Shown: piece by piece, positions 5,842-20,944 of the stretch
How the letters are laid out: every line of letters begins with the position of its first letter
How positions within the stretch are numbered: the stretch's first letter is position 1
Source: Alphaproteobacteria bacterium
GTDB lineage: Bacteria > Pseudomonadota > Alphaproteobacteria > UBA2966
Direction of reading: 5' to 3'
Length of the DNA stretch: 64,000 nt
Assembly: GCA_030740435.1 (NCBI GenBank)
Contig: JASLXG010000066.1
Location: 24,603-88,602, forward strand
The notes under the pieces: generated by a model
Told to the model about the DNA's origin: nothing
Database searches by the model: none
What the model saw: only the letters and a program-made list of their open reading frames with translations
Program-made: the position numbers and the translations under genes

Positions 5842-6618
5842 ATGAAAGCGCAGACGAAATTAGGCTCTTTGGCGATTGCCGTGGCGGTCGCGGTGGCCTT
5901 GGCGGCACCCGCCCAGGCGGCTAAGAAGTACAAGGAAATCGACGTCCAGAACGGCGCCACCATCAGCGGGCGTGTGAGCTTCGAAGGCGCGCTCCCGGCC
6001 GACGCGGTGGAGAAGATCCTGATCACCAAGGATCCCAAGATCTGCGGCGAGGGTGAACGCGAAGTGGTCTGGATCGACGTCAAGGACGGCGCGCTGCGCG
6101 GCAGCTTCGTCTTCATCAACAAAATAAAAGAGGGCAAGAAGTGGGGCGCCCCGACCGGCGGCAAGTACATCATCGACCAGAAGGGTTGCCGCTTCAATCC
6201 CTGGGCCCAGGTGGTGCAGCCCGGCCCCATCACCATCCGCCACTCGGACCCGGGGGCGCTGCATAACATCAACACGCGCGAGATCATCGGCGTGGGCAAG
6301 AAGAAGTCGGTCAAGCGCACCATGTTCAACTTCGGCCAGCCCGAGCCCGGCGATATCGAACAGGCGCTGAAGCCCAGGCGCTCAGCCTTCATCGGCATCA
6401 ACTGCGAGGCCCACAACTTCATGTTCGGCTACATGATGGCACCCAAACACCCCTATGCCGTGGTGGTCGCGGACGACGGCTCGTTCAGCCTTGGCGACGT
6501 GCCGCCAGGCAAGTATTCGGTGCGTGCCTGGCATCCCCGGCTCGGCCTCAAGAAGACCAAGATCACGGTGGCGGCCGGAGCCAAGGCGGAAGCCAATTTC
6601 GCTTTCAAGGCCAAGTAG
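5842..6618 (+). CDS. Secreted hypothetical protein (258 aa) with a signal peptide and carboxypeptidase-regulatory-like beta-sandwich motifs
   Basis: Signal peptide MKAQTKLGSLAIAVAVAVALAAPAQA with an AxA cleavage site. The C-terminal motif DDGSFSLGDVPPGKYSVRAWH resembles a CarbopepD_reg domain. A His/Met/Cys-rich patch INCEAHNFMFGYMMAPKH is present. The RBS aggagagg precedes the ATG at 5842. Confidence 0.45.
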   Translation: MKAQTKLGSLAIAVAVAVALAAPAQAAKKYKEIDVQNGATISGRVSFEGALPADAVEKILITKDPKICGEGEREVVWIDVKDGALRGSFVFINKIKEGKKWGAPTGGKYIIDQKGCRFNPWAQVVQPGPITIRHSDPGALHNINTREIIGVGKKKSVKRTMFNFGQPEPGDIEQALKPRRSAFIGINCEAHNFMFGYMMAPKHPYAVVVADDGSFSLGDVPPGKYSVRAWHPRLGLKKTKITVAAGAKAEANFAFKAK

Positions 6619-6649: not shown

Positions 6650-8764
6650 GTGACGAAGGCGGGGCAGGGGCGAAGCAGGCAGGCGCTGCTGGCGCTGGCG
6701 GCGCTGACCCTGGCCGTTCTGGCTGCCTCGCCGGCCTGGGCCCTGGAGGCCAACGAATACCGCCAGGTCCTGGGCCTCGATTCGCGCAAAGTCGTTTGGT
6801 TCCTGGCCCAGATGCACCTTTTCTTCGGCGCCTTCGTGCTCGGCGTGCCGCTGTTCGCCGTGATCATCGAAATCGTCGGCTGGAAGAACGGCGACGAACG
6901 CTTCGACAAGCTGGCCTACGAATTCACCAGCCTGCTCAGCGTCGCCTATGCCACCACGGCGGCACTCGGCGGCATGCTGGCCTTCGCGCTGTTTACGCTT
7001 TACCCGACCTTCATGGGCTTCATGGCCGGAGCCTTCAAGGACGTCTTTTTCGTCTACGCCATCCTGTTTTTTGCCGAGACCTTCTGCCTCTATCTCTACT
7101 ACTACGGCTGGAAGGCGATGCAGGGGCGGGAGCCTTTCGGAAAAACCCTGCAACTGCTCTTCAAGACGGCCGGCGTGGTCATCGCAGGCCTTGGCCTGCT
7201 TTTCCTGTTCGGTCTTATCGGACCCGAGATGCGGGGCGATACCCGGGCCTTCATGGCGCTCTTGTACGTGCTGCCGCTGGGGGCCGGGATATATCTGCTG
7301 AAAGACGGCAAGTCGGGCCACATCCTGATCGGCATCCTGCTCAACCTGGCCGGCACCGGCATCATGCAGGCGGCCAACTCGATGGCCGGCTTCATGATGA
7401 GCCCGGCCGGCGTCAGCGAGGCCGGCGAGATCATCGGCAGCACCTGGCAGGTCTTCGAGAACGTGCTGGCCACGCCGGTGGCTATCCACCGCATGCTGGG
7501 CAATCTCGCCTTCGGCGGCCTGGTGGCGGGATCGTATGCCGCCGTCAAGTTCATCGGCGCCAAAACGGCCGAGGAAAAGGCGCACTACGACTGGATGGGC
7601 TACATCGCCAATTTCGTCGCCATCGCCGCCCTGATCCCGCTGCCCTTCGCCGGCTACTACCTGGGCCGCGAGGTCTATTCGACCTCGGCCGTCATGGGCA
7701 ACAACATGATGGGCGGCGATTTCTCCTGGACCTTCATCATCCAGGCCGTGCTGGTGGGCTCGCTGTTCTTGATCTCGAACTATTACCTCTGGTCCGGCAT
7801 GACCCGCATCCCGGGGTCCGAGCGCTATTACAAGTTCATCAAGTTCATCCTCTTTGCCCTGATCGTCTCCTTCGCCATCTGGCTGACGCCGCACAACCTG
7901 CCGCTGACGGGCTCGGAGGTGGGCGATATGGGCGGCAGCCAATACCACCCGACGCTCAAGTTCCTGGGCCTGATGCCGGCCAAGAACGCGGTGGTCAACC
8001 TGATCATCATCTCGACCTTCGTCAGCTTTCTTTTGTATCGCCGCGGCAACAAGGCCGATGCCGTGTCGATCCGGGCCCAGGGGCGGACGCCGATGATCGT
8101 CATCGGCCTGGCCGGCGCGGCGGCGCTCTTGATCGTTGGCCAATTCGCCTGGTCGCTGATGACCATGAGCCCGGCCGAGCTCGACCTGCCGGCCGACACG
8201 GCGCAGTACTTCCGCACCGTCGGTTGGCTCTTGATCGGCGAATGCGCCATGGTGGTGGTGGCCGTCGGCCTGGCGCTCACGGACCGCGGCAAGTGGGCCC
8301 AGGCGCTCTATCTCGCCTACACCGTCTTCAGCGTCGTGCTGTTCCTCGGCGTCTACGGCTTCGTGGTCATGGAGAAGGCCTCGCCCTTCCTGCGCGACGT
8401 TGCCGTGGCCCAGTTCCTGCAGCTCATCAGTGCCCTCATTCTGGTCTCCGCCATCGACCTATTCCTGTTCAAGGGCGCTCAGGAGATCGGCCCCCTGCAG
8501 TGGGGCAAGATGACCAACCGCAGCCAGTACGCGCTGCTGGCGCTGACCTTCGTCATCACCATGAACATGGGCCTGATGGGCTTCATCCGCTCAGGTTTGC
8601 GCGGCGACTGGCACATCTTCGGGGTCATGCGCGACACCTCGGAATGGTCCTACACGCCGACCAACGCCACCATGACCGAGATGGTCAGCCTGGCCGTGCT
8701 GGTCTTCATGGTGGGCGTCGCCTTCATGTTCTGGCTGGGCAGCATCGCTGCCAAGAAGGACTAG
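6650..8764 (+). CDS. Cytochrome bd oxidase subunit I (CydA)-like membrane protein, module 1, about 704 aa with a predicted cleavable signal peptide; no cydB partner
   Basis: The N-terminal region AQMHLFFGAFVLGVPLFAVIIEIVGW aligns with E. coli CydA [26 protein letters not shown], conserving the His19-equivalent. FFAETFCLYLYYYGW aligns with FFLESTFVGLFFFGW. VAIHRMLGNLAFGGLVAGSYAA matches the His186 helix. It is polytopic with extra C-terminal TM helices. The GTG start at 6650 follows the RBS ggagagg. The upstream ORF-track extension (from 6455) is Arg-rich nonsense. Confidence 0.7.
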   Translation: MTKAGQGRSRQALLALAALTLAVLAASPAWALEANEYRQVLGLDSRKVVWFLAQMHLFFGAFVLGVPLFAVIIEIVGWKNGDERFDKLAYEFTSLLSVAYATTAALGGMLAFALFTLYPTFMGFMAGAFKDVFFVYAILFFAETFCLYLYYYGWKAMQGREPFGKTLQLLFKTAGVVIAGLGLLFLFGLIGPEMRGDTRAFMALLYVLPLGAGIYLLKDGKSGHILIGILLNLAGTGIMQAANSMAGFMMSPAGVSEAGEIIGSTWQVFENVLATPVAIHRMLGNLAFGGLVAGSYAAVKFIGAKTAEEKAHYDWMGYIANFVAIAALIPLPFAGYYLGREVYSTSAVMGNNMMGGDFSWTFIIQAVLVGSLFLISNYYLWSGMTRIPGSERYYKFIKFILFALIVSFAIWLTPHNLPLTGSEVGDMGGSQYHPTLKFLGLMPAKNAVVNLIIISTFVSFLLYRRGNKADAVSIRAQGRTPMIVIGLAGAAALLIVGQFAWSLMTMSPAELDLPADTAQYFRTVGWLLIGECAMVVVAVGLALTDRGKWAQALYLAYTVFSVVLFLGVYGFVVMEKASPFLRDVAVAQFLQLISALILVSAIDLFLFKGAQEIGPLQWGKMTNRSQYALLALTFVITMNMGLMGFIRSGLRGDWHIFGVMRDTSEWSYTPTNATMTEMVSLAVLVFMVGVAFMFWLGSIAAKKD

Positions 8765-8768
8765 CCGC

Positions 8769-9746
8769 ATGACCGCCACCATGGCCAGGGTTGCGCTGTT
8801 CATGTTTCTGCTGCTGGGCCTTTTCCTGTGGGTCGGCAGCACCATCACGGCCATGACCGGCGGCGACAAGCGGCCCAAGGGCGGCGCCGTCGAGGTCAGC
8901 CCCGAGGGCGGCGAGGCCATCTTCTGGGGCAAGGGGCGCTGCTTCACCTGCCACAGCCTGGGCGGCCAAGGGAGCGCCGTGCGCTGCCCCAACCTGGGCC
9001 AATTCGGCGACAAGTTCGCGCTGCCCATCGGCGCCCGAGCGGCGGAGCGGGCCAAGGAACGCAGCGCCAAGACCGGCCAGACCTACACGACCACCGATTA
9101 CCTGGTGGAAAGCCTGGCCGAGCCTGGGGCCTACGTCGTCGAGGGCTACAAGAACGAGATGGCCATCGTCTACGCGCCGCCGATCTCGCTCAATCTTACC
9201 GAGATCAAGGCCGTGATCGCCTACTTGCAGAGCCAGGGCGGCGACGTCGACATGGAGGCGCTGAACAAGCCAAGCCCGATCAGCCAGAAGTTCTTCGCCC
9301 GCATCAATGCGGCCTCGGCCGCCGGTGGTGGCGATCCCGGTGCCGGCGAGGTGGTCTTCGAGGACAACTGCGCCGAATGCCATGACCTCGGTGGTGAAGA
9401 CGAGGAGCTGCCGGGTCCGGCGCTTTCGGGCGTCGGCAAGAAGGGCCTCAAGTTCCTGGCCGATGCCATCCTCAGGCCGGCCAAGGAGATCACCAAGGGT
9501 TTCGAGACGTATCAAGCGGTGATGAAGGACGGCCGCAAGCACGTTGGCCTGAAAAGCCGTGACGAGGGCGGCGAGGTCGACATCACCAAGGCCAACGGCG
9601 ACGTCGAGACGCTGGCCAAGGCCGAGATCAAGGAGCTCAAGGAAGACAAGGGCAAATCGATCATGCCCGAAGACCTGATCGAGGCCCTGACGGTCAAGGA
9701 CTATCAGGACGTCCTCTCGTTCCTGCTGTTGCAAAAGGGCGAGTAA
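8769..9746 (+). CDS. Membrane-anchored di-haem cytochrome c (module 1)
   Basis: N-terminal TM helix (VALFMFLLLGLFLWVG). Two CxxCH motifs (CFTCH, CAECH). The second domain carries GPALSGVGKKG...ILRP, a class I cytochrome c-like motif. Confidence 0.75.
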   Translation: MTATMARVALFMFLLLGLFLWVGSTITAMTGGDKRPKGGAVEVSPEGGEAIFWGKGRCFTCHSLGGQGSAVRCPNLGQFGDKFALPIGARAAERAKERSAKTGQTYTTTDYLVESLAEPGAYVVEGYKNEMAIVYAPPISLNLTEIKAVIAYLQSQGGDVDMEALNKPSPISQKFFARINAASAAGGGDPGAGEVVFEDNCAECHDLGGEDEELPGPALSGVGKKGLKFLADAILRPAKEITKGFETYQAVMKDGRKHVGLKSRDEGGEVDITKANGDVETLAKAEIKELKEDKGKSIMPEDLIEALTVKDYQDVLSFLLLQKGE

Positions 9747-9752
9747 GGCACC

Positions 9753-10718
9753 ATGGCAAAGCTCAGAATCAGTCGCTTCTGGTGGGTCGTGATCACCATT
9801 GTGGCGGTCTATGCCTTCGTCAAATGGGGCATTCCGGCGCTCTCGCGGGAAATCACGGCGCTGCCCTTCCCGCTTTCGGTGCCGGGCACCTTGATGTTCA
9901 TCTACATCGTGCTGACGCTGGTGGCGCTGTTTCTCTTCATCACCTTTTCGGACGACTACCTGGAAGAATTCAGCCGCCCCATCAAGCGTCTGCTGCGCGG
10001 CGAATTCGGCGCCATCCCGCGCCTCGTGGTGCTGCTGGCGGTGCCGTTGATCGTCGGCTGGCAGGTTTACGACGTGACCGTGCCCAAGGTCGAGCTGCCC
10101 TCGACGCTGCGCATCCAGCACCCCTCGTCGAACTTCCCCAAGAAGTTCGAGAGCATGAACAATCCCTTCGCCAATCCCGATGAAGCCACGGTCGCGGCCT
10201 TCATCGAGCAGGCCAAGGACGAGGAGATCGAGTTCATCGCCCAAGTCCAGGGCGACATCGAGGCCTGGCGCGAAGAGATCGATCCAGACAACCCCTACGA
10301 TTTCATCCCCACCAAGCCCTGGCGTGCCTTTCTCGCCCAGCTCGAAGAGGGCGAGGTCGAGCCGGCCGTGGCCAAGGCGGCGCTGGTGGAGAAGAACCTC
10401 TTCGAGGGGCGCGCCCTATATGCCATGAACTGCCGGCCCTGCCACGGCGACAGCGTCGCCGGCGACGGCCCGCTGGCCGACGGCTTCAAGCTCAGGCCGA
10501 TCAACTTCACCGACAACGGCACCATCGAGACCATCGTCGAGGGCTACACCTTCTGGCGCGTGAGCAACGGCGGCCCCGGCCTGCCCACCGAGGCCACACC
10601 CTGGGATTCGGCCATGCCCGAGTGGAAGGTCAGCCTGACCGAGGCCGAGCGCTGGAAGATCATCCTGGCCGAATACGACCTGGCCCAGAAGACGCCGCGC
10701 ATCCCGGAGAGCCATTGA
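9753..10718 (+). CDS. Membrane-bound mono-haem cytochrome c (module 1)
   Basis: Two to three N-terminal TM helices. A single CRPCHGD haem motif sits in a C-terminal soluble domain carrying the G[YF]xFWR...GGPGLP motif. It is a paralog of the gene at 16716-17483. Confidence 0.7.
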   Translation: MAKLRISRFWWVVITIVAVYAFVKWGIPALSREITALPFPLSVPGTLMFIYIVLTLVALFLFITFSDDYLEEFSRPIKRLLRGEFGAIPRLVVLLAVPLIVGWQVYDVTVPKVELPSTLRIQHPSSNFPKKFESMNNPFANPDEATVAAFIEQAKDEEIEFIAQVQGDIEAWREEIDPDNPYDFIPTKPWRAFLAQLEEGEVEPAVAKAALVEKNLFEGRALYAMNCRPCHGDSVAGDGPLADGFKLRPINFTDNGTIETIVEGYTFWRVSNGGPGLPTEATPWDSAMPEWKVSLTEAERWKIILAEYDLAQKTPRIPESH

Positions 10719-12337
10719 TGGTTTCGCGCATCACCATGGCGCTGGGCTTGGGCCTTCTCGCTTTCGCGGTCTCGCCGGCCGAGGCCGCCGACGTCTCGCA
10801 GGATCCCCAGCCCGAGTTCACGGACGAGCTGCGGGCTGAAGGCCGGCAGATCTACTTCCAGCGCTGCAGCTTCTGCCACGGCCTGCTGGGCGACGGCGAG
10901 GGACCGGCGGCGCCCTTCATGGACCCCCGGCCGCGCGACTTCACGCTGGGCACCTTCAAGTTCCGCACCACCCAGTCGGGCGAGCTGCCGCAAGATTCAG
11001 ACATCTTCCGCACCGTCAGCCGCGGCCTCAGCGGCACCGCCATGCAGGCCTTCGACGACGAGCGCATCAAGAACGGCCTCAGCGAGCACCAGCGCTGGGC
11101 CGTGATCGCCTACATCCAGACCTTCGCCCAGGAGTTCGACGATGAGGAACTGGACCCGGTCAAGACCGGCAAGGTGGTGGCGCTGCCCAAGGACCGCCCG
11201 GCCTATGGCGCCGAAATCGTGGCCAAAGGCAAAGAAATCTTTCTCAAGGCCAAGTGCTGGGAATGCCACGGCAAGTCGGGCCGCGGCGACGGCCAAAAAT
11301 CCTTCGACCGCAAGGACGACTGGGGCTTTCCCATCCGCATCCGCAACGTCACCCATCCCTGGAAGATCAAGGCCGGCGACCGCGTCGAGGACATCTACAT
11401 GCGTTTCTCGACCGGCATCAGCGGCACGCCCATGCCGTCTTTCGTCAAGGCCCTGAGCGAGAGCGAACGCTGGCAGCTGGCCAACTTCATCAAGTCTTTG
11501 CAGATCCAGCGCACCAGCCACCAGGTGCTGAAGGCGCTGCGCCTGGAGGGCGAGCTGCCCGAGAGCCCGGATGATCCGCGCTGGAAGCAAGCCGAGCCCA
11601 TGGACGTGATTCTTACCGGGCAGGCCGTGGCGCCGCCGCGCTGGCAAAGCCCGTCGGTCGAGATGGTGACGCTGAGGGCCGTCTTCAATGACAACGAAAT
11701 CGCTTTCCGGCTGACTTGGGACGACCCCTTCAAGGACACCAAGCACGACGCCGGGCAGGAACTCGACGTCAAGGAGATCAGCGCCAGCGGCATCTACAGT
11801 TCATACGTCGACGTCAACGAGTTGGCGGTGCGCAAGCTGGAGACCTATCGCGACGCCGTGGCGCTGCAGTTTCCCGTGAAGCCCACCGAGGGCACCAGGC
11901 GGCCGCACTTCCTGCGCGGCTCGGCCTCGGATCCGGTGCATCTCTGGCTTTGGAAAGCCGATGAGGGCGCTGTCGAGGAAGCCGTCGGCCGGGGTTGGCG
12001 CCAAGGCCTGAGGCCGCAGCCCGAGGAGCAGCAGCAGGTCGCCGCCAAGGCCGCCTGGGACCAGGGGCGCTGGCAACTGGTGATGAAACGGCCCTTGCGC
12101 ACCGAGGACAAGAACGACGTCCAGTTCGAGGCCGGCCGCTTCATTCCGCTGTCGCTCAATGCCTGGGACGGCTCCAACGGCGAACACGGTTTGATCATGA
12201 GCCTCTCTAGTTGGTATTACGTCTTCCTCGAAGCGCCGACGCCGATCAGCGTTTACCTCTATACCATCCTGGCGATCTTGATCACGGGCGGTCTGGGTTT
12301 CTGGTTGATGAGAAAAGCTGAAGCGGAAGACGCCTAG
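10718..12337 (+). CDS. Di-haem cytochrome c fused to an EB_dh/DOMON-like haem-binding domain, with a C-terminal TM anchor (module 1)
   Basis: The ATG at 10718 overlaps the upstream stop (tgATG). Signal peptide MVSRITMALGLGLLAFAVSPAEA. Haem motifs CSFCHG and CWECHG. The C-terminal half (WDDPFKDTKHD...ALQFPVK...DPVHLWLWKAD...WQLVMKRPL) resembles the ethylbenzene-dehydrogenase gamma / DOMON haem b domain. Terminal helix YLYTILAILITGGLGFWLM. Confidence 0.65.
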   Translation: MVSRITMALGLGLLAFAVSPAEAADVSQDPQPEFTDELRAEGRQIYFQRCSFCHGLLGDGEGPAAPFMDPRPRDFTLGTFKFRTTQSGELPQDSDIFRTVSRGLSGTAMQAFDDERIKNGLSEHQRWAVIAYIQTFAQEFDDEELDPVKTGKVVALPKDRPAYGAEIVAKGKEIFLKAKCWECHGKSGRGDGQKSFDRKDDWGFPIRIRNVTHPWKIKAGDRVEDIYMRFSTGISGTPMPSFVKALSESERWQLANFIKSLQIQRTSHQVLKALRLEGELPESPDDPRWKQAEPMDVILTGQAVAPPRWQSPSVEMVTLRAVFNDNEIAFRLTWDDPFKDTKHDAGQELDVKEISASGIYSSYVDVNELAVRKLETYRDAVALQFPVKPTEGTRRPHFLRGSASDPVHLWLWKADEGAVEEAVGRGWRQGLRPQPEEQQQVAAKAAWDQGRWQLVMKRPLRTEDKNDVQFEAGRFIPLSLNAWDGSNGEHGLIMSLSSWYYVFLEAPTPISVYLYTILAILITGGLGFWLMRKAEAEDA

Positions 12338-12391
12338 GACGCGCTAGAGTGCGGTCCATCCGTATGGGGAGAGAAGTTTGGGAGAGCGAGT

Positions 12392-13054
12392 ATGAGAATA
12401 ATTTTTGCCTCATCTTTGGCGCTGGCGCTGAGCCTGGCCGCAAGTGGTCCGGCCCGGGCTGATGCGGCGGCCGGCAAGGCCGCCTTCGCGGCCCAGAAAT
12501 GCGAGGGCTGCCATTACACCGAAGGGCCGGCCAGGGAGAAGTCGATCGACGATCAGTTGGCCAAGAAGGGGCCTGAGCTGTGGTACGCCGGTTCCAAGTT
12601 CCAGGCGCCCTGGCTCGAGGCCTGGCTGCAAAAACCCGATGCCATCCGGCCGCTGAAGTACAACACGCTCGAACAAGAGAACCCCGGCGACCATCCCAAG
12701 CTTTCGGGCGGCGATGCCAAGAACGTCGCCGCTTTCCTCATGAGCCTGACCTCGGACGCTGTCAAGGCGGGCAAGGTCAAGGCCAAGAGGAACGCCAAGG
12801 GGCGCCTGATTTTCTCCAAGAAAATGCCCTGTTCCGGTTGCCACTCCTCCATCGGCCGCAAGAAGAAAGTCGGCGGCGGGCGTTCCGGCCCGACCCTGGT
12901 CGGGGCCGGCCAGCGCCTCAACCCGGACTGGATCCTGGCCTATCTCAAGACGCCCGACGTCTTCAAGCCGATCAAGGCCATGCCCGTGTTCGCCGGTATC
13001 CTGGGCGACAAGGACATGCTCAACCTGGCCCGCCACGTGGCCAGCTTCAAGTAG
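12392..13054 (+). CDS. Di-haem cytochrome c with two CcoO/NorC-like haem domains (module 1 only)
   Basis: Signal peptide. Haem motifs CEGCH and CSGCH. Each is followed by a GPxL...G....W...LxxP......MP block resembling the cbb3 CcoO / NorC haem domain. Confidence 0.7.
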   Translation: MRIIFASSLALALSLAASGPARADAAAGKAAFAAQKCEGCHYTEGPAREKSIDDQLAKKGPELWYAGSKFQAPWLEAWLQKPDAIRPLKYNTLEQENPGDHPKLSGGDAKNVAAFLMSLTSDAVKAGKVKAKRNAKGRLIFSKKMPCSGCHSSIGRKKKVGGGRSGPTLVGAGQRLNPDWILAYLKTPDVFKPIKAMPVFAGILGDKDMLNLARHVASFK

Positions 13055-13074
13055 CCCGGCGGGAGGATAGAACC

Positions 13075-13443
13075 ATGAAAAGATTGACCACCGCCGCTGC
13101 CTTCTGCACCCTGGCGTTTGCCCTGGCCGTTCCTTCGGCCCAGGCCGCCGATGCCAAGAAGGTCTACAACTTCTATTGCGCCCAGTGCCACGGCACCGCC
13201 GGCAAAGGCAAGGGACCCAACGTCACCAAGGACTTTCCCGTCAGCCCGCGCGACTTCACCAATGCCGCCGAGATGGACAAGCTCTCGGACGCCGACATGA
13301 AGAACGTGATTCTGGATGGCGGTCCGGCGGCCTCCAAGTCGCCCATGATGCCGCCCTGGTCCAAGACCCTGAAGGGCGACGAGGTTGACGCTCTGGTCGG
13401 CTACCTGCGCAAGTTCTGCGGCTGCAAGGGCAAGCAAGGCTAG
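13075..13443 (+). CDS. Periplasmic mono-haem cytochrome c, 122 aa (module 1 only)
   Basis: The RBS gggagga precedes the ATG at 13075. Signal peptide MKRLTTAAAFCTLAFALAVPSAQA. CAQCHG motif. Confidence 0.7.
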   Translation: MKRLTTAAAFCTLAFALAVPSAQAADAKKVYNFYCAQCHGTAGKGKGPNVTKDFPVSPRDFTNAAEMDKLSDADMKNVILDGGPAASKSPMMPPWSKTLKGDEVDALVGYLRKFCGCKGKQG

Positions 13444-13531
13444 TAAGGCGCCCGGTGCCGCCGGGGAGGCGGCGCCGCTTCGTTTCAATTTTGGGAGAAG
13501 GGAGCCGCCGCGGTCTTGGACACTGCGGCCT

Positions 13532-13633
13532 TCAGAAAACGAAAAACCACAGAATCAGCACGATCACCACGGCGTTGATCAGCATGCCGGTGAGAATGAA
13601 GGTGTCGGCCAGACGTTTCTTGGGGATTTTCAT
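13532..13633 (-). CDS. Candidate 33-aa single-TM membrane peptide (MKIPKKRLADTFILTGMLINAVVIVLILWFFVF), antisense to the cluster
   Basis: Hand-translated ORF, too short for the ORF track. It has the classic small-membrane-protein architecture: a basic N-terminus followed by a 21-aa hydrophobic helix. It lies in the AT-rich spacer. Confidence 0.3.
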   Translation of the reverse strand: MKIPKKRLADTFILTGMLINAVVIVLILWFFVF

Positions 13634-13723
13634 TGAGGTAATGCAGTCTGTGGTTGCTTAATCTATGTGAAGGATATGGTTTCGGAGGCAGGTTAGGTTT
13701 CGGGCGCGCAACGATGGCTGGAC

Positions 13724-13846
13724 ATGACGATGACTGAAAACAACGGTGCAACAGGCAGTGGATCAGCCAACGCCTGGGCCGGTCCGGCCCTCTTTACGGT
13801 CGTTGCCGTGGTCATGCTGGTCTTCTTCTATTGGTTCCTGTCCTAG
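13724..13846 (+). CDS. Candidate 40-aa single-TM peptide (MTMTENNGATGSGSANAWAGPALFTVVAVVMLVFFYWFLS)
   Basis: Hand-translated ORF on the cluster strand upstream of cydA-like 2. The RBS is weak. Confidence 0.25.
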   Translation: MTMTENNGATGSGSANAWAGPALFTVVAVVMLVFFYWFLS

Positions 13847-13897
13847 AGTCAAGGCAGCCTGCAGGGGGGCACAAATGAATAATCCGAGGGATTGCTC

Positions 13898-14014
13898 ATG
13901 AAGGACTACGTGGTGCCCTTTGTGGCGGCGTTCGTGGTGTGGGGTCTCCTCTTTCTCGGTCTCGACGTGGTGATCATGAACGCCCAGGGACTGAACCTGA
14001 TCTATCAGCCGTAG
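13898..14014 (+). CDS. Candidate 38-aa single-TM peptide (MKDYVVPFVAAFVVWGLLFLGLDVVIMNAQGLNLIYQP), 10 nt upstream of cydA-like 2
   Basis: Hand-translated ORF. The RBS gaggg lies 7 nt upstream of the ATG. In size and position it looks like a CydX-like small subunit. Confidence 0.3.
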   Translation: MKDYVVPFVAAFVVWGLLFLGLDVVIMNAQGLNLIYQP

Positions 14015-14023
14015 GGGGGACTG

Positions 14024-15880
14024 GTGACGCACAGCAAGGTTTTGACCGCCTGGCGCCCCTGGGTGCTGGCGGCTCTGGTGGCGACGCTGTTGCTGGCCCT
14101 GGTGCCGCTGCTGGGCAGCGCCCTGGATATCGCGTCGCCGGCCCTGGCGGCCGAAGGCGAGGCGGCGGCGGCGGCAAGCGGCGAGCAGGCGGCGGCCCCG
14201 GCCGGCCCGACCATCGCGCCGCCCAAACTGAAGAGCACCGACTATCCGGTTGTGGCCGGCGTCAACGGACGCATCTTCGTCTGGCTGGCGGCGCAATTGC
14301 ACCTCTGGTTCGCGGCCTTCGTGCTGGCCGTGCCGATCTTCGTCTTCATCATCGAAGCCATCGGCATGTACAGCCGCGACCAACGCTACGACAACATGGC
14401 CTACGAGTTCATCAAGGTCAGCATCACCGCCTATTCCCTGACCGCCATCCTGGGTGGCCTGTTGGCCATCGGCCTGATCGTTTTCTACCCGCACCTCTTC
14501 CAGTACATGTCCGGCGTCTTCAAGGAATCGATGGTCTGGTATGCGGTGCTGTTCTTCGCCGAAAGCGCCTGCCTTTACATCTATTACTACGGCTGGCACT
14601 GGCTGCAGGGCGGCTTCCGCAAGTGGGTTCATCTGACGCTGGGGCTGGTGCTGAATGGCGTCGGCACGACGCTGATGTTCCTGGCCAACGCCTGGCTCAC
14701 CTTCCAGATGAGCCCGGCCGGCGTCGATGCCGCCGGCCTCTATTCCGGCGACGTCTGGGCCGCCATCCACAATCCCTTGTGGAACCCCATCAACCTGCAC
14801 CGCATGATCGCCAACGTCGCCTACGGCGGCTCGGTGGTCGGCGCCTATGCCGCCTTCCGGTTTCTCTCGTCGCGCACGGCCGAGCTCAGGGCGCATTACG
14901 ACTGGATGGGCTACACCGCCAACTTCATCGCCATCAGCGCGCTCTTGCCGCTGCCCTTCGCCGGCTACTACCTGACGGCCGAGATCTACGCCTACAGCCA
15001 GCAGATGGGCATCACCCTGATGGGCGGCGTCTTCGCCTGGCTCTTCATCATCCAGGCGGTGCTGATCGGCACGCTGTTCCTCTCGGCCAACTATTATCTC
15101 TGGTGCGGCATGGGGCGCAGCGACGGGGCGCCGCGTTACAACCCCTATATCAAGTACATAGCCTTCGGTCTGGTGGCCTCGTTCCTGGTCTGGTTCACGC
15201 CCCACACCCTGGTGCTGACGAACGAGGAACTGAAGGCTCTGGGCGGGCCCTACCACAAGTACCTGGGGCCGCTGGGCATCATGCCGGCCAAGAACACGGC
15301 CGTGAACTACATGATCATCCTGACGGCGCTGAGTTTCCTGATTTACCGCCGCGCCAACAAGATCCCGACGGTAAGCTGGGTCAAGATCGGCAATGCCGTG
15401 CAGGTGGCCATGTTCACGGCCGCCGTCGTCAACATCCTTATCCTGGGCGTCTACCACGGCTACTTCACCAACACCGTCTACAAGGTGGCGAGCTCGATCC
15501 CCCAGGTGTTGACGACGCTGGTGGTGATCTTCGTCAGTACGCTCATCGACGTCTTCATGTACCGCGGCGCCAAGGACGTGGCGCCGCTGCATTGGGGCCG
15601 ATTGCCCGAACGCGCCCAGTACGCGCTCTTCCTGCTGGCCGTCTCGTTCACCTGGCTGATGGGCCTGATGGGCTACATCCGCTCGGGCATCCGCCAGCAC
15701 TGGCACGTGGTCGGCATCTTCCGCGACAACTCGGCCGACGCCTTCACGCCGACCCTGGCGGGCGGTGCCAATATCGTCTCTGTGGGGGTCATCATCTTCC
15801 TGGTGATGGTCATCTTCGTCTTCTGGGTCAGCCAGATCAGCGGCCGCAAGACCGAAGTGGCCGGATACTGGAGGACCTAG
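14024..15880 (+). CDS. Cytochrome bd subunit I (CydA)-like membrane protein, module 2, 618 aa with a signal peptide and an Ala-rich periplasmic N-terminal extension; no cydB
   Basis: AAQLHLWFAAFVLAVPIFVFIIEAIGM (His19-equivalent). FFAESACLYIYYYGW. PINLHRMIANVAYGGSVVGAYAA (His186-equivalent). About 55% identical to the module 1 paralog over conserved blocks. GTG start per the ORF track. Confidence 0.7.
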   Translation: MTHSKVLTAWRPWVLAALVATLLLALVPLLGSALDIASPALAAEGEAAAAASGEQAAAPAGPTIAPPKLKSTDYPVVAGVNGRIFVWLAAQLHLWFAAFVLAVPIFVFIIEAIGMYSRDQRYDNMAYEFIKVSITAYSLTAILGGLLAIGLIVFYPHLFQYMSGVFKESMVWYAVLFFAESACLYIYYYGWHWLQGGFRKWVHLTLGLVLNGVGTTLMFLANAWLTFQMSPAGVDAAGLYSGDVWAAIHNPLWNPINLHRMIANVAYGGSVVGAYAAFRFLSSRTAELRAHYDWMGYTANFIAISALLPLPFAGYYLTAEIYAYSQQMGITLMGGVFAWLFIIQAVLIGTLFLSANYYLWCGMGRSDGAPRYNPYIKYIAFGLVASFLVWFTPHTLVLTNEELKALGGPYHKYLGPLGIMPAKNTAVNYMIILTALSFLIYRRANKIPTVSWVKIGNAVQVAMFTAAVVNILILGVYHGYFTNTVYKVASSIPQVLTTLVVIFVSTLIDVFMYRGAKDVAPLHWGRLPERAQYALFLLAVSFTWLMGLMGYIRSGIRQHWHVVGIFRDNSADAFTPTLAGGANIVSVGVIIFLVMVIFVFWVSQISGRKTEVAGYWRT

Positions 15881-15883
15881 GCG

Positions 15884-16702
15884 ATGATGAACTTCCTCAA
15901 GGTGGCCCTCTTCTCGCTGGTCGTCATCGGCTTTTTCGCGGGCTATTCCAACTGGGGCATCCCGCAGATCGAGCCGGCGGCGCCGCCGGTGGAAGAAGTG
16001 CTCGATCTGGGCGCCATGACCATGGACGACTTCATCGCGCTGGGCGGCAAGATCTACAACGGCAAGGGCACCTGCACGCTCTGCCACAATGCCGTCGGCG
16101 GCCGGGCGCCCATGCTCGATACCGCCGCCGGCCTGGTTGCCGAACGCCTCAAGGACGCCCGCTACAAGGGCGAGGCCAGCGACGCCGAGGGCTATCTGCT
16201 GGAATCGCTGGTCAATCCCTCGGCCTTCGTGGTGGCGGGCTTCGGCAAGAAGGGGACAGCCGATGCCGAAAGCCCGATGCCCGACGTCTCGGGCGGCTCG
16301 GTGGGCTTGAGCGAGGTCGAACTGGCGGCCGTGGTGGCCTTCCTGCAGGATCTCGGCGGCACCGATGTGACGGTGGAGATCCCCTCGGGCGCCCAGGCCT
16401 CCGACGAAAGCGGCGACGAGGAGGGCGAGCCCCGGGCGGCCTACGCCTCGATCGAGGAACTGATCGCCGAGCAGTCCTGCGGCGCCTGCCACAAGGTGGC
16501 CGGCGAGGAAGGCGACGTTGGTCCGGACCTCAACGGCATCGGCGCCAAGTACGATCGCGACTACCTGCGCCGTTCCATCCTCGATCCCAATGCCGACATC
16601 GGCCAGGGCTTCGAGGCCGACACCATGCCGGCGGAATACGGCACCACCCTCTATGCCCAGGAACTCGAAATGCTGATCGACTACCTGGCCAAACTGAAAT
16701 GA
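15884..16702 (+). CDS. Membrane-anchored di-haem cytochrome c (module 2)
   Basis: N-terminal TM helix. Haem motifs CTLCH and CGACH. GPDLNGIGAKYDRDYLRRSILDP motif. It is a paralog of the gene at 8769-9746. Confidence 0.75.
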   Translation: MMNFLKVALFSLVVIGFFAGYSNWGIPQIEPAAPPVEEVLDLGAMTMDDFIALGGKIYNGKGTCTLCHNAVGGRAPMLDTAAGLVAERLKDARYKGEASDAEGYLLESLVNPSAFVVAGFGKKGTADAESPMPDVSGGSVGLSEVELAAVVAFLQDLGGTDVTVEIPSGAQASDESGDEEGEPRAAYASIEELIAEQSCGACHKVAGEEGDVGPDLNGIGAKYDRDYLRRSILDPNADIGQGFEADTMPAEYGTTLYAQELEMLIDYLAKLK

Positions 16703-16715
16703 GCAGGGGCGCGGC

Positions 16716-17483
16716 ATGAAAATTCCCAGGCTCCTGCTGTCGGTCATCACCGTCCTGGTCTTCTACGCCGCCTTCGAGGTGGTCTTCGGGCTGATCCTCG
16801 GGCAGCCCATCCCGGCCAGCCTGATGACCATGTACATGTTCTTCGTGGTTGCCGGCGTCTTCATGACGTTTACCTTCACCGAGGAAGGCGGCCGCGAGAT
16901 GGTGGCGCCGATCAAGGCGCTGGTCGAGGATCCCTCCAAACGCATGGTGCGCAACGTCGTCTTCGTCATCGTGCCGCTGCTGGCCGGTGGCCTGACGTAT
17001 TGGCAGATGCAGCCCTCCTTCGAGGCGCCGCTGGAGCTGCGTTCGATCCATCCGGCACCGCCCTCGAGCGCCAAGATCTACGGCAAGCGCTACGATCTGC
17101 TGACGCTGGAGAACCCGTTGCGCAAGTTCGAGAAGGAGGATCCCGAGAAGTTCCGCGAATTGGTGGCGGCGGGCGCCACGGTCTACATCGAGAACTGCCA
17201 GTACTGCCACGGCGACAAGCTCGATGGCCAGGGGCCCTACGCCCAGGGCCTCAATCCGGTGCCGCTCAACTTCCAGGACATCGGCACCATCGCCCAGCTT
17301 CAGGAATCCTACCTCTTTTGGCGCATTGCCACGGGCGGGCCGGGCCTGCCCAGCGAAGCCTCGCCCTGGCTCTCGTCGATGCCGGTGTGGCAGAGCTTCC
17401 TCAAGGAAGAAGAAATCTGGCAGGTCATCCTTTTCCTTTACGACTACACCGGCCACCGGCCGCGCTCATGGGAGCATGAATGA
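16716..17483 (+). CDS. Membrane-bound mono-haem cytochrome c (module 2)
   Basis: Three N-terminal TM helices. CQYCHGD motif. ...YLFWRIATGGPGLPSEASPW... It is a paralog of the gene at 9753-10718. Confidence 0.7.
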   Translation: MKIPRLLLSVITVLVFYAAFEVVFGLILGQPIPASLMTMYMFFVVAGVFMTFTFTEEGGREMVAPIKALVEDPSKRMVRNVVFVIVPLLAGGLTYWQMQPSFEAPLELRSIHPAPPSSAKIYGKRYDLLTLENPLRKFEKEDPEKFRELVAAGATVYIENCQYCHGDKLDGQGPYAQGLNPVPLNFQDIGTIAQLQESYLFWRIATGGPGLPSEASPWLSSMPVWQSFLKEEEIWQVILFLYDYTGHRPRSWEHE

Positions 17484-19024
17484 TGGCTGCGGTGACGATG
17501 GATAAAGTGCTGCGGGCGCTGGGCGCCGGTATCGTGCTGGCCGCTCTTTCGGCGGGTGCCGCCCTGGCCGTGCCGGGCAATGCCGAGAAGGGCGAAAAGG
17601 TCTACCAGTTCCGCTGCCTGGCCTGCCACGGCGACGAAGGCGACGGCCTGGGCCCGGCTGCCGAGCGCCTCAACCCGCCGCCTCGGGACTTTACGCTGGG
17701 GATTTATAAGATCAAGACCAGCGCCTTTGACGAAGACGCGCCCAACGACGACGACATCTTCCGCATGATCAAGGACGGCATGCCCGGAACCGCCATGCCG
17801 GGCTGGTCGGACGTGCTCAGCGAGCAGGACATGTGGGACCTGGTGGCCTATCTCAAGGTCTTCGCCGAGATCGAGGAGGCGCCGGAGGGCCAGATCGACT
17901 ACGGCAAGCAGATCGAAAGCTCGGCCGACAGCATCGCCCGTGGGCGTGAAATTTTCCTCGATGGCGAGCGCTGCTCCGAATGCCACGGCCGTGAAGGCCG
18001 CGGTGACGGCATCAAGAAGCTCAAGGACGACAACGGCGCCCGCACCTGGCCCAGGAACCTCACCAAGGCCTGGACCTATCGCGCCGACAACAGCGCCAAG
18101 GAGATCTTCCGCCGCGTCACGGTGGGTATTCCCGGCACCCAGATGCCGGCCTTCGCCGATCCCAAGTCGAAAAAGAAACTGAGCATCGAGGAACGCTGGC
18201 ACGTGGCCAACTATGTGGCCTCGCTGGCCAAGACGGTGGAGGTCGTCAATCCCTCCAAGACGGTGATCGTGGCGGCCAAGCTCGAGGGCGCGCTGCCGGC
18301 CAAGGTCGACGACCCGAAATGGGCCGAGGCGGCGCCCGTGACCTTCATGCTGGTGCCCCAGATCATCGCCGAGGACAGGTTCTTCACGCCGGCCCACGAC
18401 AGCATCACCGCCCGCGCCTTCTATAACGACGAAGCGATCGCCATGCTGCTGGAATGGGACGACCGCACCAAGTCCTTGCCCGGGGACGACAAGGCGGCCC
18501 AGATCGCGGACGAGGAGCTGAGCTCCGACATGGTGGCCGTGCAACTGCCGGTGACGATTCCCATAAGCCAGGAGAAGCCCTATTTCCTGATGGGCGACAA
18601 ATCCCATCCCGTGAACTTCTGGCGCTGGTCCAGCGGCGGCAAGGAGGCGTCCCAGGGCGTCGAGTTGATGAACGCCACCGGGCCCTACGAGTTCGCCGAA
18701 CGCGACGCCGCCAAGACTGGTCTCACGGCCAGCGGCAGCTACAAGGACGGCACCTGGCGGGTAGTCATGACCCGGCCCTTGCGCACCGATGATGCCGAGG
18801 GCGACCTGCAGTTCGAGGAGGGCCGCTTCATCCCCGTGGCCTTCGCCAACTGGGACGGCTCCAACAGCGAAAGCGAAACCAGCCACACCCTGACGACCTG
18901 GTACTGGCTGCTGCTCGAGCCGCCGACGGGGACGCGGCCCCTGATCACGGCCCTGATCGTAGTGCTGCTGCTGGCGGCGGCCGAGATCTGGTGGGCGCGT
19001 AGCGCCCGTGGGTCCGATGCATGA
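17480..19024 (+). CDS. Di-haem cytochrome c fused to an EB_dh/DOMON-like domain with a C-terminal TM anchor (module 2)
   Basis: Signal peptide. Haem motifs CLACHG and CSECHG. EB_dh-like block (WDDRTKSLPGDD...AVQLPV...HPVNFWRWSSGG...WRVVMTRPLRTDD). Terminal helix LITALIVVLLLAAAEIWW. It overlaps the upstream gene by 4 nt. Confidence 0.65.
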   Translation: MMAAVTMDKVLRALGAGIVLAALSAGAALAVPGNAEKGEKVYQFRCLACHGDEGDGLGPAAERLNPPPRDFTLGIYKIKTSAFDEDAPNDDDIFRMIKDGMPGTAMPGWSDVLSEQDMWDLVAYLKVFAEIEEAPEGQIDYGKQIESSADSIARGREIFLDGERCSECHGREGRGDGIKKLKDDNGARTWPRNLTKAWTYRADNSAKEIFRRVTVGIPGTQMPAFADPKSKKKLSIEERWHVANYVASLAKTVEVVNPSKTVIVAAKLEGALPAKVDDPKWAEAAPVTFMLVPQIIAEDRFFTPAHDSITARAFYNDEAIAMLLEWDDRTKSLPGDDKAAQIADEELSSDMVAVQLPVTIPISQEKPYFLMGDKSHPVNFWRWSSGGKEASQGVELMNATGPYEFAERDAAKTGLTASGSYKDGTWRVVMTRPLRTDDAEGDLQFEEGRFIPVAFANWDGSNSESETSHTLTTWYWLLLEPPTGTRPLITALIVVLLLAAAEIWWARSARGSDA

Positions 19025-19260
19025 CGCCGAACCCGGCGGCTGACGACGAGGAGTTACGGGACGAGGAACCGGTCCGCGGCGTCAAGACGCGTATGATCGG
19101 CGCCGGCTTGATCTTTCTCGGCGTTCTCGACAGTCTGCTCAGTTGGCGGGGCGGTTTCGAGCCCAGCCTGTTTCATTGGTTTCTGATTGCCGCCGGCATA
19201 CTGGTTTTTGCCATCGGCGCGATCCGGCAGAGGCGGGACGCCGGGTCTCCGTCACCCTAG
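19021..19260 (+). CDS. Small two-TM membrane protein (79 aa), translationally coupled to the preceding cytochrome
   Basis: Its ATG overlaps the cytochrome stop (gcATGA). Two hydrophobic helices (MIGAGLIFLGVLDSLL and WFLIAAGILVFAIGAI). Confidence 0.4.
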   Translation: MTPNPAADDEELRDEEPVRGVKTRMIGAGLIFLGVLDSLLSWRGGFEPSLFHWFLIAAGILVFAIGAIRQRRDAGSPSP

Positions 19261-19270
19261 GAGAGTGTCC

Positions 19271-20944
19271 ATGACTGCACCCGCGTCCAGCCAGCCAGCG
19301 CTGCAGGACGGTGCCCAGGCGTCGCCGCCCGACACGGCGCCGGTTTCCTTCAAGCGCTTCATCGTCGCCCTCGATGCTTCCGACCATGCCAACCGGGCGC
19401 TGGCCGAAGCGCTACGCCTCTCGGCCACGGCCGAGGGTGAGATCACCGGCATCCACGCCTATGCCGCGGCGCTGCATGACCGGCGCTTTCGCCAGATGGA
19501 AGGCGGCCTGCCCGAGCGCTACCTCGACGAAGAGGAAATGTCCTACCAGCGCGACGTCCACGACGACCTGATTACGCGCGGTCTCGACATCATCTCCGAC
19601 AGCTACCACGACCAGGCCGAGGCCGCCTGCGAGACGGCCGGGCTGCCTTATGCCCGCCTCAGCCCCGAAGGCAAGAACGCGAGCCGCATCGTCGAAGCCC
19701 TCGAGGCCGGGGGCCACGACGTGCTGGCCATGGGTGCGCTGGGCCTGGGAGCGGTGCCGGGCAGCCTGATCGGCACCGTCTGCGAGCGCGTGGTGCGGCG
19801 CTCGCCGATCGATGTGCTCGTCGTTCGCGATGTCGAACGGGCCATCGGCGAGGGGCCGGTGGTGGTCGGCCTGGATGGCTCGCCACAGTCCTTCGGGGCG
19901 CTGCTCACGGGCTTCGAGATGGCCCGCCGGCTCGGCGTCGAGCTGCATGCCGTGGCGGCCTACGACCCCTACTACCACTACGTCGCCTTCAACCGCATCG
20001 CCGGCGTGCTCAGCGACGAAGCCGGCAAGGTCTTTCGCTTCAAGGAACAAGAACAGCTGCACGAGGAACTGATCGACGAGGGCATCGCCAAGATCTATCA
20101 GTCCCACCTCGAGGTGGCGTCGCGCACGGCCAAGGATGCCGGCGTCGAGCTCGTCACCAAGCTCCTGGACGGCAAGCCCTTCAAGGCCATCGAGGCCTAT
20201 GTCCGTGAGGTCGGCGCCAGCCTGCTGATGCTGGGCAAGACCGGCATCCACGGCGACGCCATGATCGATATCGGCGGCAACACCGAAAACCTCTTGCGTC
20301 TCGCGCCCTGCCACGTCTGGATCGGCCAGGCCAGCCACGTGCCGGCGCTGGATATCGTCGCCGCCGAAAGCATCAGCTGGAGCCATGAGGCCGAGGCGCT
20401 GCTCAACCGCGCCCCCGAATTCGCCCGTGGCATGGCCCGCCAGGCGGTGATCCGCTTTGCCCATGCCCGGGGCAACACCTACATCACGTCGGATCTGGTC
20501 GAGCAGGTGGCGGCCAAGATGATGCCCGGCCGGGGCCAGGCGGAGGCGGCCGCGGCCAGCCCGGAAACGGTCTGGAGCGCCGCCGCCGAAGCCGAGCTGG
20601 CCAAGCTCGATGATGCCAACCAGGCCGCCGGTGTTCGCCTGCGGGCGGAAAAGCGGGCTCGCCGCGAGGGCGCGGCCGAGGTTGGCGCCGAGCACGTGCG
20701 GGCCTTTGTCGAGGCGCCGGCCGCGGCCACGCTGCCTTGGGCCGCGGCGGCGCTGGCCCGGCTGACCAGGGTGCCCGAGGCCATGCGCGATCGCACCCGG
20801 GCGCGCATCGAAGAGGTGGCGCGCGAGCAGGGCGCCACCGAGGTCACGCTGGCGATCTGCGAGCTGGGCCTCGAAGAGGCCCGCAAGGCCATGCACGAGG
20901 CCATGGTCAAAGGCGGTCACACCAAGACGGTCGAAGACGATTGA
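19271..20944 (+). CDS. Tandem universal stress protein (UspA) domains with C-terminal PCP_red-like repeats
   Basis: The RBS ggagag precedes the ATG at 19271. Two UspA-like blocks (FKRFIVALDASDHANRAL...; PVVVGLDGSPQSFGALL...IDVLVV). The C-terminus has two P-[EA]-x-[MA]-R-x-x-x-R-x-[RI]-x-E-x-x-A-R-x-x-G repeats resembling the BchB C-terminal PCP_red domain. Confidence 0.6.
   Translation: MTAPASSQPALQDGAQASPPDTAPVSFKRFIVALDASDHANRALAEALRLSATAEGEITGIHAYAAALHDRRFRQMEGGLPERYLDEEEMSYQRDVHDDLITRGLDIISDSYHDQAEAACETAGLPYARLSPEGKNASRIVEALEAGGHDVLAMGALGLGAVPGSLIGTVCERVVRRSPIDVLVVRDVERAIGEGPVVVGLDGSPQSFGALLTGFEMARRLGVELHAVAAYDPYYHYVAFNRIAGVLSDEAGKVFRFKEQEQLHEELIDEGIAKIYQSHLEVASRTAKDAGVELVTKLLDGKPFKAIEAYVREVGASLLMLGKTGIHGDAMIDIGGNTENLLRLAPCHVWIGQASHVPALDIVAAESISWSHEAEALLNRAPEFARGMARQAVIRFAHARGNTYITSDLVEQVAAKMMPGRGQAEAAAASPETVWSAAAEAELAKLDDANQAAGVRLRAEKRARREGAAEVGAEHVRAFVEAPAAATLPWAAAALARLTRVPEAMRDRTRARIEEVAREQGATEVTLAICELGLEEARKAMHEAMVKGGHTKTVEDD

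Follow-up and report, generated by a model that had tools for sequence, protein, structure and literature searches.

Two diverged four-gene modules at one locus

We analyzed a 64,000-nucleotide (nt) stretch of DNA, hereafter the window, from an alphaproteobacterium of the lineage UBA2966 (GenBank assembly GCA_030740435.1, contig JASLXG010000066.1, positions 24,603 to 88,602 of the forward strand), which carries two diverged versions of one four-gene module headed by a CydA-like protein. The G+C content of the window is high (0.62-0.73), and third-position G+C makes the genes easy to recognize. Module 1, on the plus strand, comprises A1 (6650-8764), a CydA-like protein of 704 amino acids (aa) with about 18 transmembrane (TM) helices; B1 (8769-9746), a di-haem cytochrome c with CxxCH motifs at residues 58 and 201 and one N-terminal TM anchor; C1 (9753-10718), a mono-haem cytochrome c with three TM helices and its CxxCH at residue 227; and D1 (10718-12337), a di-haem cytochrome c joined to an EbdC/NxrC-type haem b domain with a C-terminal TM anchor. 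Module 2 repeats this order on the same strand with A2 (14024-15880; 618 aa, about 14 TM helices), the anchored di-haem cytochrome c B2 (15884-16702; CxxCH at residues 64 and 199), the three-TM mono-haem cytochrome c C2 (16716-17483; CxxCH at residue 161) and D2 (17480-19024), which has the domains and C-terminal anchor of D1. The genes for A1 and A2 stand 5.3 kb apart, with eight genes, a terminator-like hairpin and a gene on the opposite strand between them.

Both sets, with the domains assigned to them in an earlier reading of this DNA (the original prediction), are intact plus-strand open reading frames at exactly the positions given there, and counterparts in the two modules match each other well beyond chance (pairwise BLASTP E-values from 1e-19 to 2e-116). 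The paralogs are more distant than the 50-55% identity first claimed, at 41-46% in the A pair (47% once alignment gaps are trimmed), 34% in the B pair, 29% in the C pair and 36% in the D pair. Compared as DNA, the modules share only patches of 70-82% identity, all within conserved codons, a pattern that speaks against any recent duplication or gene conversion. The two D proteins each have a signal peptide, two CxxCH motifs, an EB_dh domain and a C-terminal TM helix. The EB_dh match has an E-value of 1e-23 in D1, which also reaches 111 bits against TIGR03477 and has its CxxCH motifs at residues 50 and 180, and of 2e-22 in D2, whose N-terminal domain matches 6H5L_B at 7e-40. D2 M371 aligns with EbdC Met108 (2IVF_C chain numbering), which we take to be a haem b ligand.

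Both CydA-like subunits retain the haem-ligand and channel residues

The Pfam family Cyt_bd_oxida_I (PF01654) matches just the N-terminal half of the two A proteins (E 2e-10 and 2e-14), ending at position 117 (A1) and 231 (A2) of the 418 in the profile. When an A2-type profile was aligned to the solved CydA structures 5DOQ_A and 9R2G_A, an alignment that spans TM1-5 only, to about residue 250 of CydA, A2 H93, E180, H203 and H259 fell on CydA His19, Glu107, His126 and His186. The equivalents of the ligands His19, His186 and Met393 (E. coli numbering) are H93, H259 and M420 in A2 and H56, H280 and M442 in A1, and they are conserved across 163 sequences. At the other signature positions, A1 has Y136 (for E99), E143 (E107), H224 (H126), S648 (E445) and W654 (W441), and A2 has Y173, E180, H203, S554 and W560 in the same order. 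The haem-ligand and channel signature positions are at least 97% conserved in both the 59 A1-clade and the 104 A2-clade sequences, and four additional histidines are common to the two clades.

In the scheme of Murali, Gennis and Hemp (2021) the cytochrome bd superfamily comprises qOR, OR-C and OR-N, and their supplement describes OR-N1 and OR-N2 proteins as having 14 TM helices and no quinol site, and OR-N2 operons as encoding multiple cytochromes c and a homologue of EbdC, the gamma subunit type of type II dimethyl sulfoxide reductases. The signature residues of A1 and A2 agree with the OR-N2 row of the supplementary table (Tyr for E99, Glu for E107, His126, His186, Met or Asn for M393, Ser for E445, and Trp), and the likeness extends to the CydA-like N-terminal half, the lack of a Q-loop, the presence of at least 14 TM helices and operon partners consisting of di-haem and mono-haem membrane cytochromes c and an EbdC/NxrC-type cytochrome b subunit. 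Judged by their residues and gene content, A1 and A2 with B, C and D are OR-N2-type bd-like modules, members of a family already described; for A1 the label is a provisional one, taken from the signature residues in the published table, and A1 retains the E107-equivalent Glu at a position where the OR-N1 reference has Gly.

AF2 models contain about 14 long helices in A2 and about 18 in A1 (the 14 plus two insertions of two helices each), and they place TM helices after the His186 helix, where the Q-loop would stand. No quinol-binding Q-loop is recognizable in A1 or A2 in the profile matches, the structure alignment or the AF2 models, and no neighboring gene matches Cyt_bd_oxida_II (CydB). We rejected the idea that A is a fused CydA and CydB arising from internal duplication, for which hhalign of the N-terminal against the C-terminal half returned a probability of 0.1. 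Relative to A2, the insertions of A1 occupy residues ~158-218 and ~472-548; the latter is kept in the entire A1 clade and the former is confined to its crown group, and such extra TM helices (two to four) are found only in the A1 clade. Among the few sites that distinguish the clades is one adjoining an invariant Trp-His pair, occupied by D653 in A1 (window ~8606-8608) and H559 in A2 (~15698-15700), each at least 90% conserved within its own clade; its placement could mark a differing metal or haem environment in the two paralogs.

The two module types form separate clades that also occur alone

We used an A2-type profile to retrieve 80 loci from species-representative genomes and an A1-type profile to retrieve another 80 from metagenomes, and mapped all window proteins onto these 160 loci (cited by L-number, as are further related contigs, where they must be told apart). 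A1 and A2 each have thousands of homologues, and the closest A homologues, 75-81% identical, lie in metagenome-assembled genomes (MAGs) labelled Alpha-, Beta- and Gammaproteobacteria. The A proteins of the 160 loci split cleanly into 59 of A1 type and 104 of A2 type, each clade being 75-80% conserved across proteobacterial classes, and the entire gene order of the window recurs in Rhodospirillaceae, Hyphomicrobiales, Kiloniellales, Acidiferrobacteraceae, Arenicellales and one Burkholderiales MAG. Related loci do not always carry both modules, a point that the original prediction had put forward as a check. Upstream sequence of at least 8.5 kb is available for 43 A2-type loci, 22 of which have no A1 module nearby. 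A2 without A1 is found in Gallionella, Mariprofundus, Magnetococcales, Nitrosomonadales, Sulfuricellaceae, Nitrospinota and Desulfobacterota-like MAGs; A2-type modules of this kind reach 76-80% identity in many lineages. Conversely, an A2 module is not nearby in eight of the ten deep A1-clade loci with at least 8 kb of downstream DNA. A1 is a more distant relative of A2 than are the A2-type proteins of Nitrospinota and Nitrospirota (57-65% identity to A2), so the split is far older than this locus, and the tandem duplication in situ that had been proposed for it cannot be claimed.

Selection has evidently kept both versions. Estimates of dN/dS by NG86 against relatives at three distances (L130, L002 and L004) are 0.13-0.27 for A1 and A2 and 0.19-0.40 for the B, C and D proteins of both modules, values for which dS is probably underestimated at this third-position G+C bias; the comparison with the closest relative, L161, is uninformative. 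By these ratios both modules are under purifying selection, and neither A protein resembles a degenerate structural partner. The proposal of an old duplication maintained by selection is in this respect borne out, by the two clades and by ratios of 0.1-0.4 for all eight genes.

Several individual loci deserve mention. L161, a European Nucleotide Archive contig of 7682 nt corresponding to window positions 8219-15880, matches the window letter for letter (100% identity) across module 1, E, F, s1-s3 (described below) and the first ~1100 nt of A2, and diverges by 6% from there to the contig end; the break is probably a strain-level mosaic or a contig-end assembly chimera. The two-module island is complete at ~78% identity in L058 (Dehalococcoidia MAG UWMA-0331) and in L031 (labelled Enterobacteriaceae), implausible labels that suggest that the island was mis-binned or horizontally transferred; a Dehalococcoidia MAG also stood out as an odd IdrA outgroup in the work of Reyes-Umana et al. 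Pseudomonadota MAG064 holds two different A2-type loci (L005 and L007), which indicates that some genomes carry at least three modules of the family.

Carriers and small membrane proteins differ between the modules

The description of the locus as two plain four-gene modules holds for the common order of A to D and falls short for the genes around them, as module 1 is preceded by a cupredoxin-like gene and module 2 also owns E, F and s1-s4. The cupredoxin-like protein (5842-6618, plus strand) is signal-anchored and ends in a CarboxypepD_reg beta-sandwich, its sole Pfam match. Its type-1-copper-like motif, H143...C190-x2-H193-x2-M196, is kept in 69 homologues down to 27% identity, and the protein also carries C70 and C118. 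Where enough upstream DNA is available, the gene stands directly before the A1-type gene in 8 of the 22 close loci and in 20 of the 32 distant ones. In an alternative layout a cytochrome c gene stands directly before A1 (L081 9171-10001; the same position in L009, L031, L058, L082, L086 and L134) and the cupredoxin-like gene lies upstream of the peroxidase genes described below, which looks like a swap of copper and haem carriers at one position. The protein is probably a cupredoxin-like electron carrier, and we regard it as a candidate for that role in module 1.

The corresponding genes before module 2 encode the periplasmic di-haem cytochrome c E (12392-13054) and the periplasmic mono-haem cytochrome c F (13075-13443), both on the plus strand. 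They travel with A2-type modules and also precede A2 in the single-module loci of Gallionella, Mariprofundus and Magnetococcales. Directly 3' of the F stop codon lies a terminator-like hairpin with a T-rich run (13453-13477, plus strand), whose 10-pair stem contains nine G-C pairs. The inter-module spacer that follows F (13444-14023), originally described as AT-rich, has a G+C content of 0.55 and is mostly coding, for three small proteins that we call s1, s2 and s3; an Rfam scan of 12300-14200 returned nothing close to any gathering score.

Each of these proteins has a single TM helix. The 33-aa s1 (13532-13633, minus strand) was found in 67 loci (tblastn E<0.01), always upstream of an A2-type gene; its strand varies, being minus here and in many alphaproteobacterial loci and plus in Acidiferrobacteraceae. 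The 38-aa s2 (13730-13846, plus strand; WAGPALF...FFWWFL) was also found in 67 loci, and the 38-aa s3 (13898-14014, plus strand) in 80, which include single-module loci and exclude A1-only loci. Together, s1-s3 precede the A2-type gene in 86 of 104 loci, and the A1-only loci lack them. They are also picked up by gene callers on related contigs, s1 on L161, L162 and L166. A fourth protein, the 79-aa, two-TM s4 (19021-19260, plus strand), has a start that overlaps the D2 stop codon; it occurs in 39 loci, shortly downstream of D2 in 38 of them (in L008 it lies ~2.8 kb away) and never directly after D1. No description of these four A2-linked membrane proteins was found in the literature searched.

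Canonical bd oxidases have small single-TM subunits of their own, CydX, CydS and CydH. Like these, s1-s4 include short single-TM proteins encoded beside the catalytic gene and conserved with it, but they show no sequence similarity to the known subunits and differ from them in number; s1-s4 are candidate subunits by gene neighborhood.

A tetrapyrrole cassette follows the last module

Downstream of s4, on the plus strand, lie genes for a Usp domain protein with two PCP_red domains of the BchB C-terminal type (19271-20944), a radical SAM/SPASM enzyme of the tetrapyrrole-modifying AhbD/NirJ group with a PCP_red domain (20958-22250), and a HemY-like, protoporphyrinogen-oxidase-like flavoprotein (22240-23637; TIGR00562 at 220 bits, cut-off 97.85). 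The radical SAM enzyme is closest to the haem b synthase AhbD and to NirJ2, scoring 293 bits against TIGR04545 and 289 bits against TIGR04055, both under the cut-off. The Usp and radical SAM genes neighbor bd-like modules in 34 of the 80 A2-centred loci, some of them in distant phyla, and they come after whichever module is last, including single modules of either clade. This placement suggests one haem-tailoring cassette for both modules where they stand in tandem; in the window a single downstream cassette probably serves both, which would account for the two sitting together. We regard the cassette as a candidate for making a modified or unusual active-site haem.

An iodate-reductase-like cluster precedes module 1

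The window opens with the last 75 codons of a di-haem cytochrome c peroxidase gene (3-230, plus strand), idrP-like and the second of two, the rest of which lies off the window. Positions 3-230 match the end of a CCP_MauG gene on contigs of the same organism (L162, L163 and L165; 99.9% nt identity), and on contigs L162-L165 both peroxidase genes are complete and stand before the Rieske gene. That gene (245-835, plus strand) encodes an IdrB/AioB-like Rieske [2Fe-2S] small subunit with a twin-arginine signal (SRRQFL motif), recognized by Pfam Rieske and by TIGR02694 at 115 bits (cut-off 95.65). It is followed on the same strand by a molybdopterin large subunit of the AioA/IdrA group (849-3521), in which Rieske_3, Molybdopterin and Molydop_binding domains are matched; this subunit reaches 400.9 bits against TIGR02693 (cut-off 359) and 270 bits against NT-26 AioA, and it retains the CxxCxxxC motif of a 3Fe-4S cluster. 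The Rieske and molybdopterin subunits can also be aligned with solved AioA structures.

The substrate site of AioA is formed, as we assume, by His195, Glu203, Arg419 and His423 (A. faecalis numbering), and relative to NT-26 AioA the subunit in the window keeps the His, Arg and His and has Ser at the Glu position. A plain arsenite oxidase was considered and set aside for the two peroxidase genes and the Glu-to-Ser change, despite NCBIfam cut-offs being passed. All related loci that reach far enough upstream have the order peroxidase-peroxidase-Rieske-molybdenum subunit, and this cluster precedes A1 in 13 of 13 close loci and 7 of 17 deeper A1 loci. Idr-like clusters also stand beside A2-type single modules in L079 and L080 (a Nitrospinota MAG and a Sedimenticola MAG), so the molybdoenzyme link is not exclusive to A1. 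Between the two island layouts seen, the cluster proteins are ~55-58% identical.

The cluster resembles idrABP1P2 (Yamazaki 2020; Reyes-Umana 2021) in its AioA-related molybdenum subunit, its Rieske subunit and its two adjacent peroxidases, and differs in gene order, which is P-P-B-A in the window. Reyes-Umana (2021) called IdrA by synteny with two adjacent di-haem cytochrome c peroxidases, and our term idr-like likewise denotes synteny. Between the molybdenum subunit and the cupredoxin-like gene, a 730-aa HEAT/PBS-lyase-like repeat protein (3611-5803, plus strand; HEAT_2 E 2e-54) is encoded by a gene that related loci likewise carry between the molybdenum subunit and A1; in its repeats the protein is similar to bilin lyases such as CpcE and NblB. 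Further upstream, on contigs of the same organism, among them L162 (1-6872), a gene for a sigma-54-dependent response regulator precedes the peroxidase genes, and a sigma-54-like -24/-12 site, TGGTACGGTTTTTGC, lies at L162 1166-1180, off the window and before the first of the peroxidase genes; no other intergenic sigma-54-like site was found for the island. We found no paper linking idr genes to bd-like oxidases, in a literature whose coverage was incomplete.

Discussion

Our findings favor, at a probability of about 0.65, the interpretation that modules 1 and 2 are ancient paralogous OR-N2-type modules, each forming its own complete membrane complex, and that they are isoenzymes rather than an A1-A2 pair. 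We infer an electron path with O2 as acceptor, separate transcription of the two modules and a common maturation cassette. Periplasmic carriers, the cupredoxin-like protein for module 1 and cytochromes E and F for module 2, would feed the haem c domains of B, C and D together with the haem b in the EbdC-like domain of D; the electrons would then reach the haems of subunit A, namely a His/Met low-spin haem and a high-spin site on the His19 equivalent. The terminal acceptor would be reduced at A and is most probably O2, as the literature proposes for the family; the conserved high-spin haem site, together with that literature, suggests O2 reduction. Module 1 is co-oriented, and probably co-transcribed, with the iodate-reductase-like cluster, and module 2 would form a separate unit with its own four small membrane subunits s1-s4, a separation suggested by the hairpin at 13453-13477 and by s1 on the opposite strand. 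Differentially expressed isoenzymes were one of the two options first put forward, and the hairpin and the divergently oriented s1 fit that option best.

Several observations weigh against this interpretation. The promoter expected for module 2 did not emerge, as no sigma-70 or sigma-54 consensus above chance occurs in the spacer before it. The close A1 orthologues (at least 70% identity) all have A2 downstream in a fixed order (15 of 15), so module 1 in this lineage may depend on module 2 or its neighbors, and the single-module calls cover ±10 kb, not whole genomes. O2 reduction by OR-N members has been proposed only from genomics and expression in the literature searched, and the same cluster occurs in strictly anaerobic anammox bacteria, which keeps a quinone-linked or enzyme-anchoring role in play, particularly for module 1.

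The original prediction had raised the possibility that A1 and A2 pair in the manner of archaeal CydAA', with one CydA-like protein playing the role of CydB and the eight proteins forming one super-complex. CydB and archaeal CydA' themselves diverged from copies of CydA, a/b pairing of paralogs has been suggested for several OR-N and OR-C subfamilies, and the invariable company of A2 with close A1 orthologues (15 of 15) would follow from such an arrangement. Nevertheless, we consider pairing very unlikely. Both paralogs keep all of the haem and channel residues that are typically lost in b partners, and each comes with a B, C and D of its own. A1 is absent beside A2-type modules of 76-80% identity in many lineages, and deep A1-type modules are found without A2. 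The two genes are 5.3 kb apart with eight genes, the hairpin and the opposite-strand gene between them; Murali et al. moreover name this group as a likely exception to paralog pairing. With both A proteins complete, each with its own B, C and D and each clade found alone, an AA' pseudo-heterodimer is not supported. In the CydAA' systems (qOR4a/qOR4b) of Caldivirga and other archaea, A' has lost not only the ligands of haem b558 but also the quinol site and channel residues; the window shares with them two CydA-family paralogs in one locus and no CydB gene, whereas there the genes are adjacent and one is degenerate, and here both are complete, well separated and found alone elsewhere.

A different division of labor is conceivable, in which module 1 is not an oxidase and is dedicated to membrane electron transfer for the periplasmic Idr/Aio-like molybdoenzyme next to it. 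D1 would be a docking subunit of the alternative-NxrC type, module 1 would link the enzyme to the quinone pool or another acceptor, and module 2 would be the general terminal oxidase. This would explain the cluster standing before all 13 close and 7 of 17 deeper A1 loci, and it would fit the four extra TM helices of A1 and its clade-specific Asp (D653 against H559). It also has a parallel in the similar cluster beside the periplasmic nitrite oxidoreductase (NXR) of Nitrospina, Nitrospira and the anaerobe Kuenenia, for which a quinone link or anchoring has been proposed. The putative O2-reducing-site residues are, however, equally conserved in A1 and A2, no quinol site is recognizable, and A2-type single modules also adjoin idr-like clusters (L079 and L080), and we judge this explanation unlikely. 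Bolder still, the conserved ~25-kb island, which runs from the sigma-54 activator through two peroxidases, Rieske and molybdenum subunits, HEAT protein, cupredoxin, module 1, E/F, s1-s3, module 2 and s4 to the haem-tailoring cassette, might be one self-contained respiratory unit in which an Idr-type enzyme is hard-wired to a bd-like module through the cupredoxin and D1, as is thought for NXR and its bd-like cluster in nitrite oxidizers. We attach very little weight to this idea. If it were true and the enzyme oxidative (for example, with iodide as donor and electrons passing to O2), the island would be a lithotrophic chain and a candidate for the long-sought biological oxidation of iodide to iodate in the ocean, and the two modules would be specialized branches instead of redundant copies.

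For the isoenzyme interpretation, which we prefer, the closest functional resemblance lies in Pseudomonas, where tandem ccoNOQP-1 and ccoNOQP-2 operons encode separately regulated isoenzymes of cbb3 oxidase. There, as in the window, a whole multi-subunit operon is present twice; the enzyme superfamily is unrelated, and the Pseudomonas copies are far more alike than the two modules. From the canonical CydAB(X) quinol oxidase the window modules differ in having neither a CydB gene nor a Q-loop. The nearest relatives in kind are the clusters of a bd-like oxidase, mono-haem and di-haem cytochromes c and an alternative NxrC (Lücker 2010, 2013; Mundinger 2019), which are conserved beside the periplasmic NXR in Nitrospira, Nitrospina and anammox bacteria (Lücker 2013; Mundinger 2019) and of which Ca. 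Manganitrophus has an equivalent, the TO_1 complex, among its most highly expressed genes. OR-N members are already listed for Proteobacteria. The module described here differs from the OR-N2 clusters in being proteobacterial and beside an Idr/Aio-like molybdoenzyme instead of NXR, in occurring twice as a whole, in the two to four extra TM helices of the A1 clade, in the fusion of D to a di-haem cytochrome c and in the four small membrane proteins that accompany A2. Paralogous pairs are also known from Nitrospira, in which bd-like_3 and bd-like_4 lie 'a few genes downstream' (Mundinger 2019) and an OR-N1/OR-N2 pair shares one operon (Murali 2021), the N. inopinata pair being 32% similar. The likeness is that of two diverged paralogs close together in one locus after an old duplication; in the window, however, all four module genes are duplicated, not the CydA-like gene alone, and no petABD genes are present.

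The family, the operon type and the duplication of the bd-like gene are therefore known already, and what appear new in the literature searched are the architecture of the A1 clade, its cupredoxin partner, the four small A2 proteins, the common tetrapyrrole cassette and the idr-like link. We found no paper on bd-like oxidases in Gallionella, Zetaproteobacteria or Magnetococcus, again within incomplete literature coverage. Nitrite and manganese oxidizers, and possibly iron oxidizers as well, are thought to rely on bd-like (OR-N) complexes as their main terminal oxidases, and no such complex has been purified; two ancient subtypes that differ in their membrane parts, whether built in or encoded separately, and in their carriers, copper in one and haem in the other, offer natural material for finding the essential parts. 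As the A1 subtype is tied to iodate-reductase-like genes in abundant marine Proteobacteria, many of them from oxygen-minimum waters, it connects low-oxygen respiration with iodine cycling, a link that is testable in existing metatranscriptomes.

Elsewhere in the window, and unrelated to the modules, a perfect sigma-54 -24/-12 consensus, TGGCACGGGGCTTGC, occurs at 37694-37708 on the plus strand, 18 nt before an open reading frame at 37726-38250.

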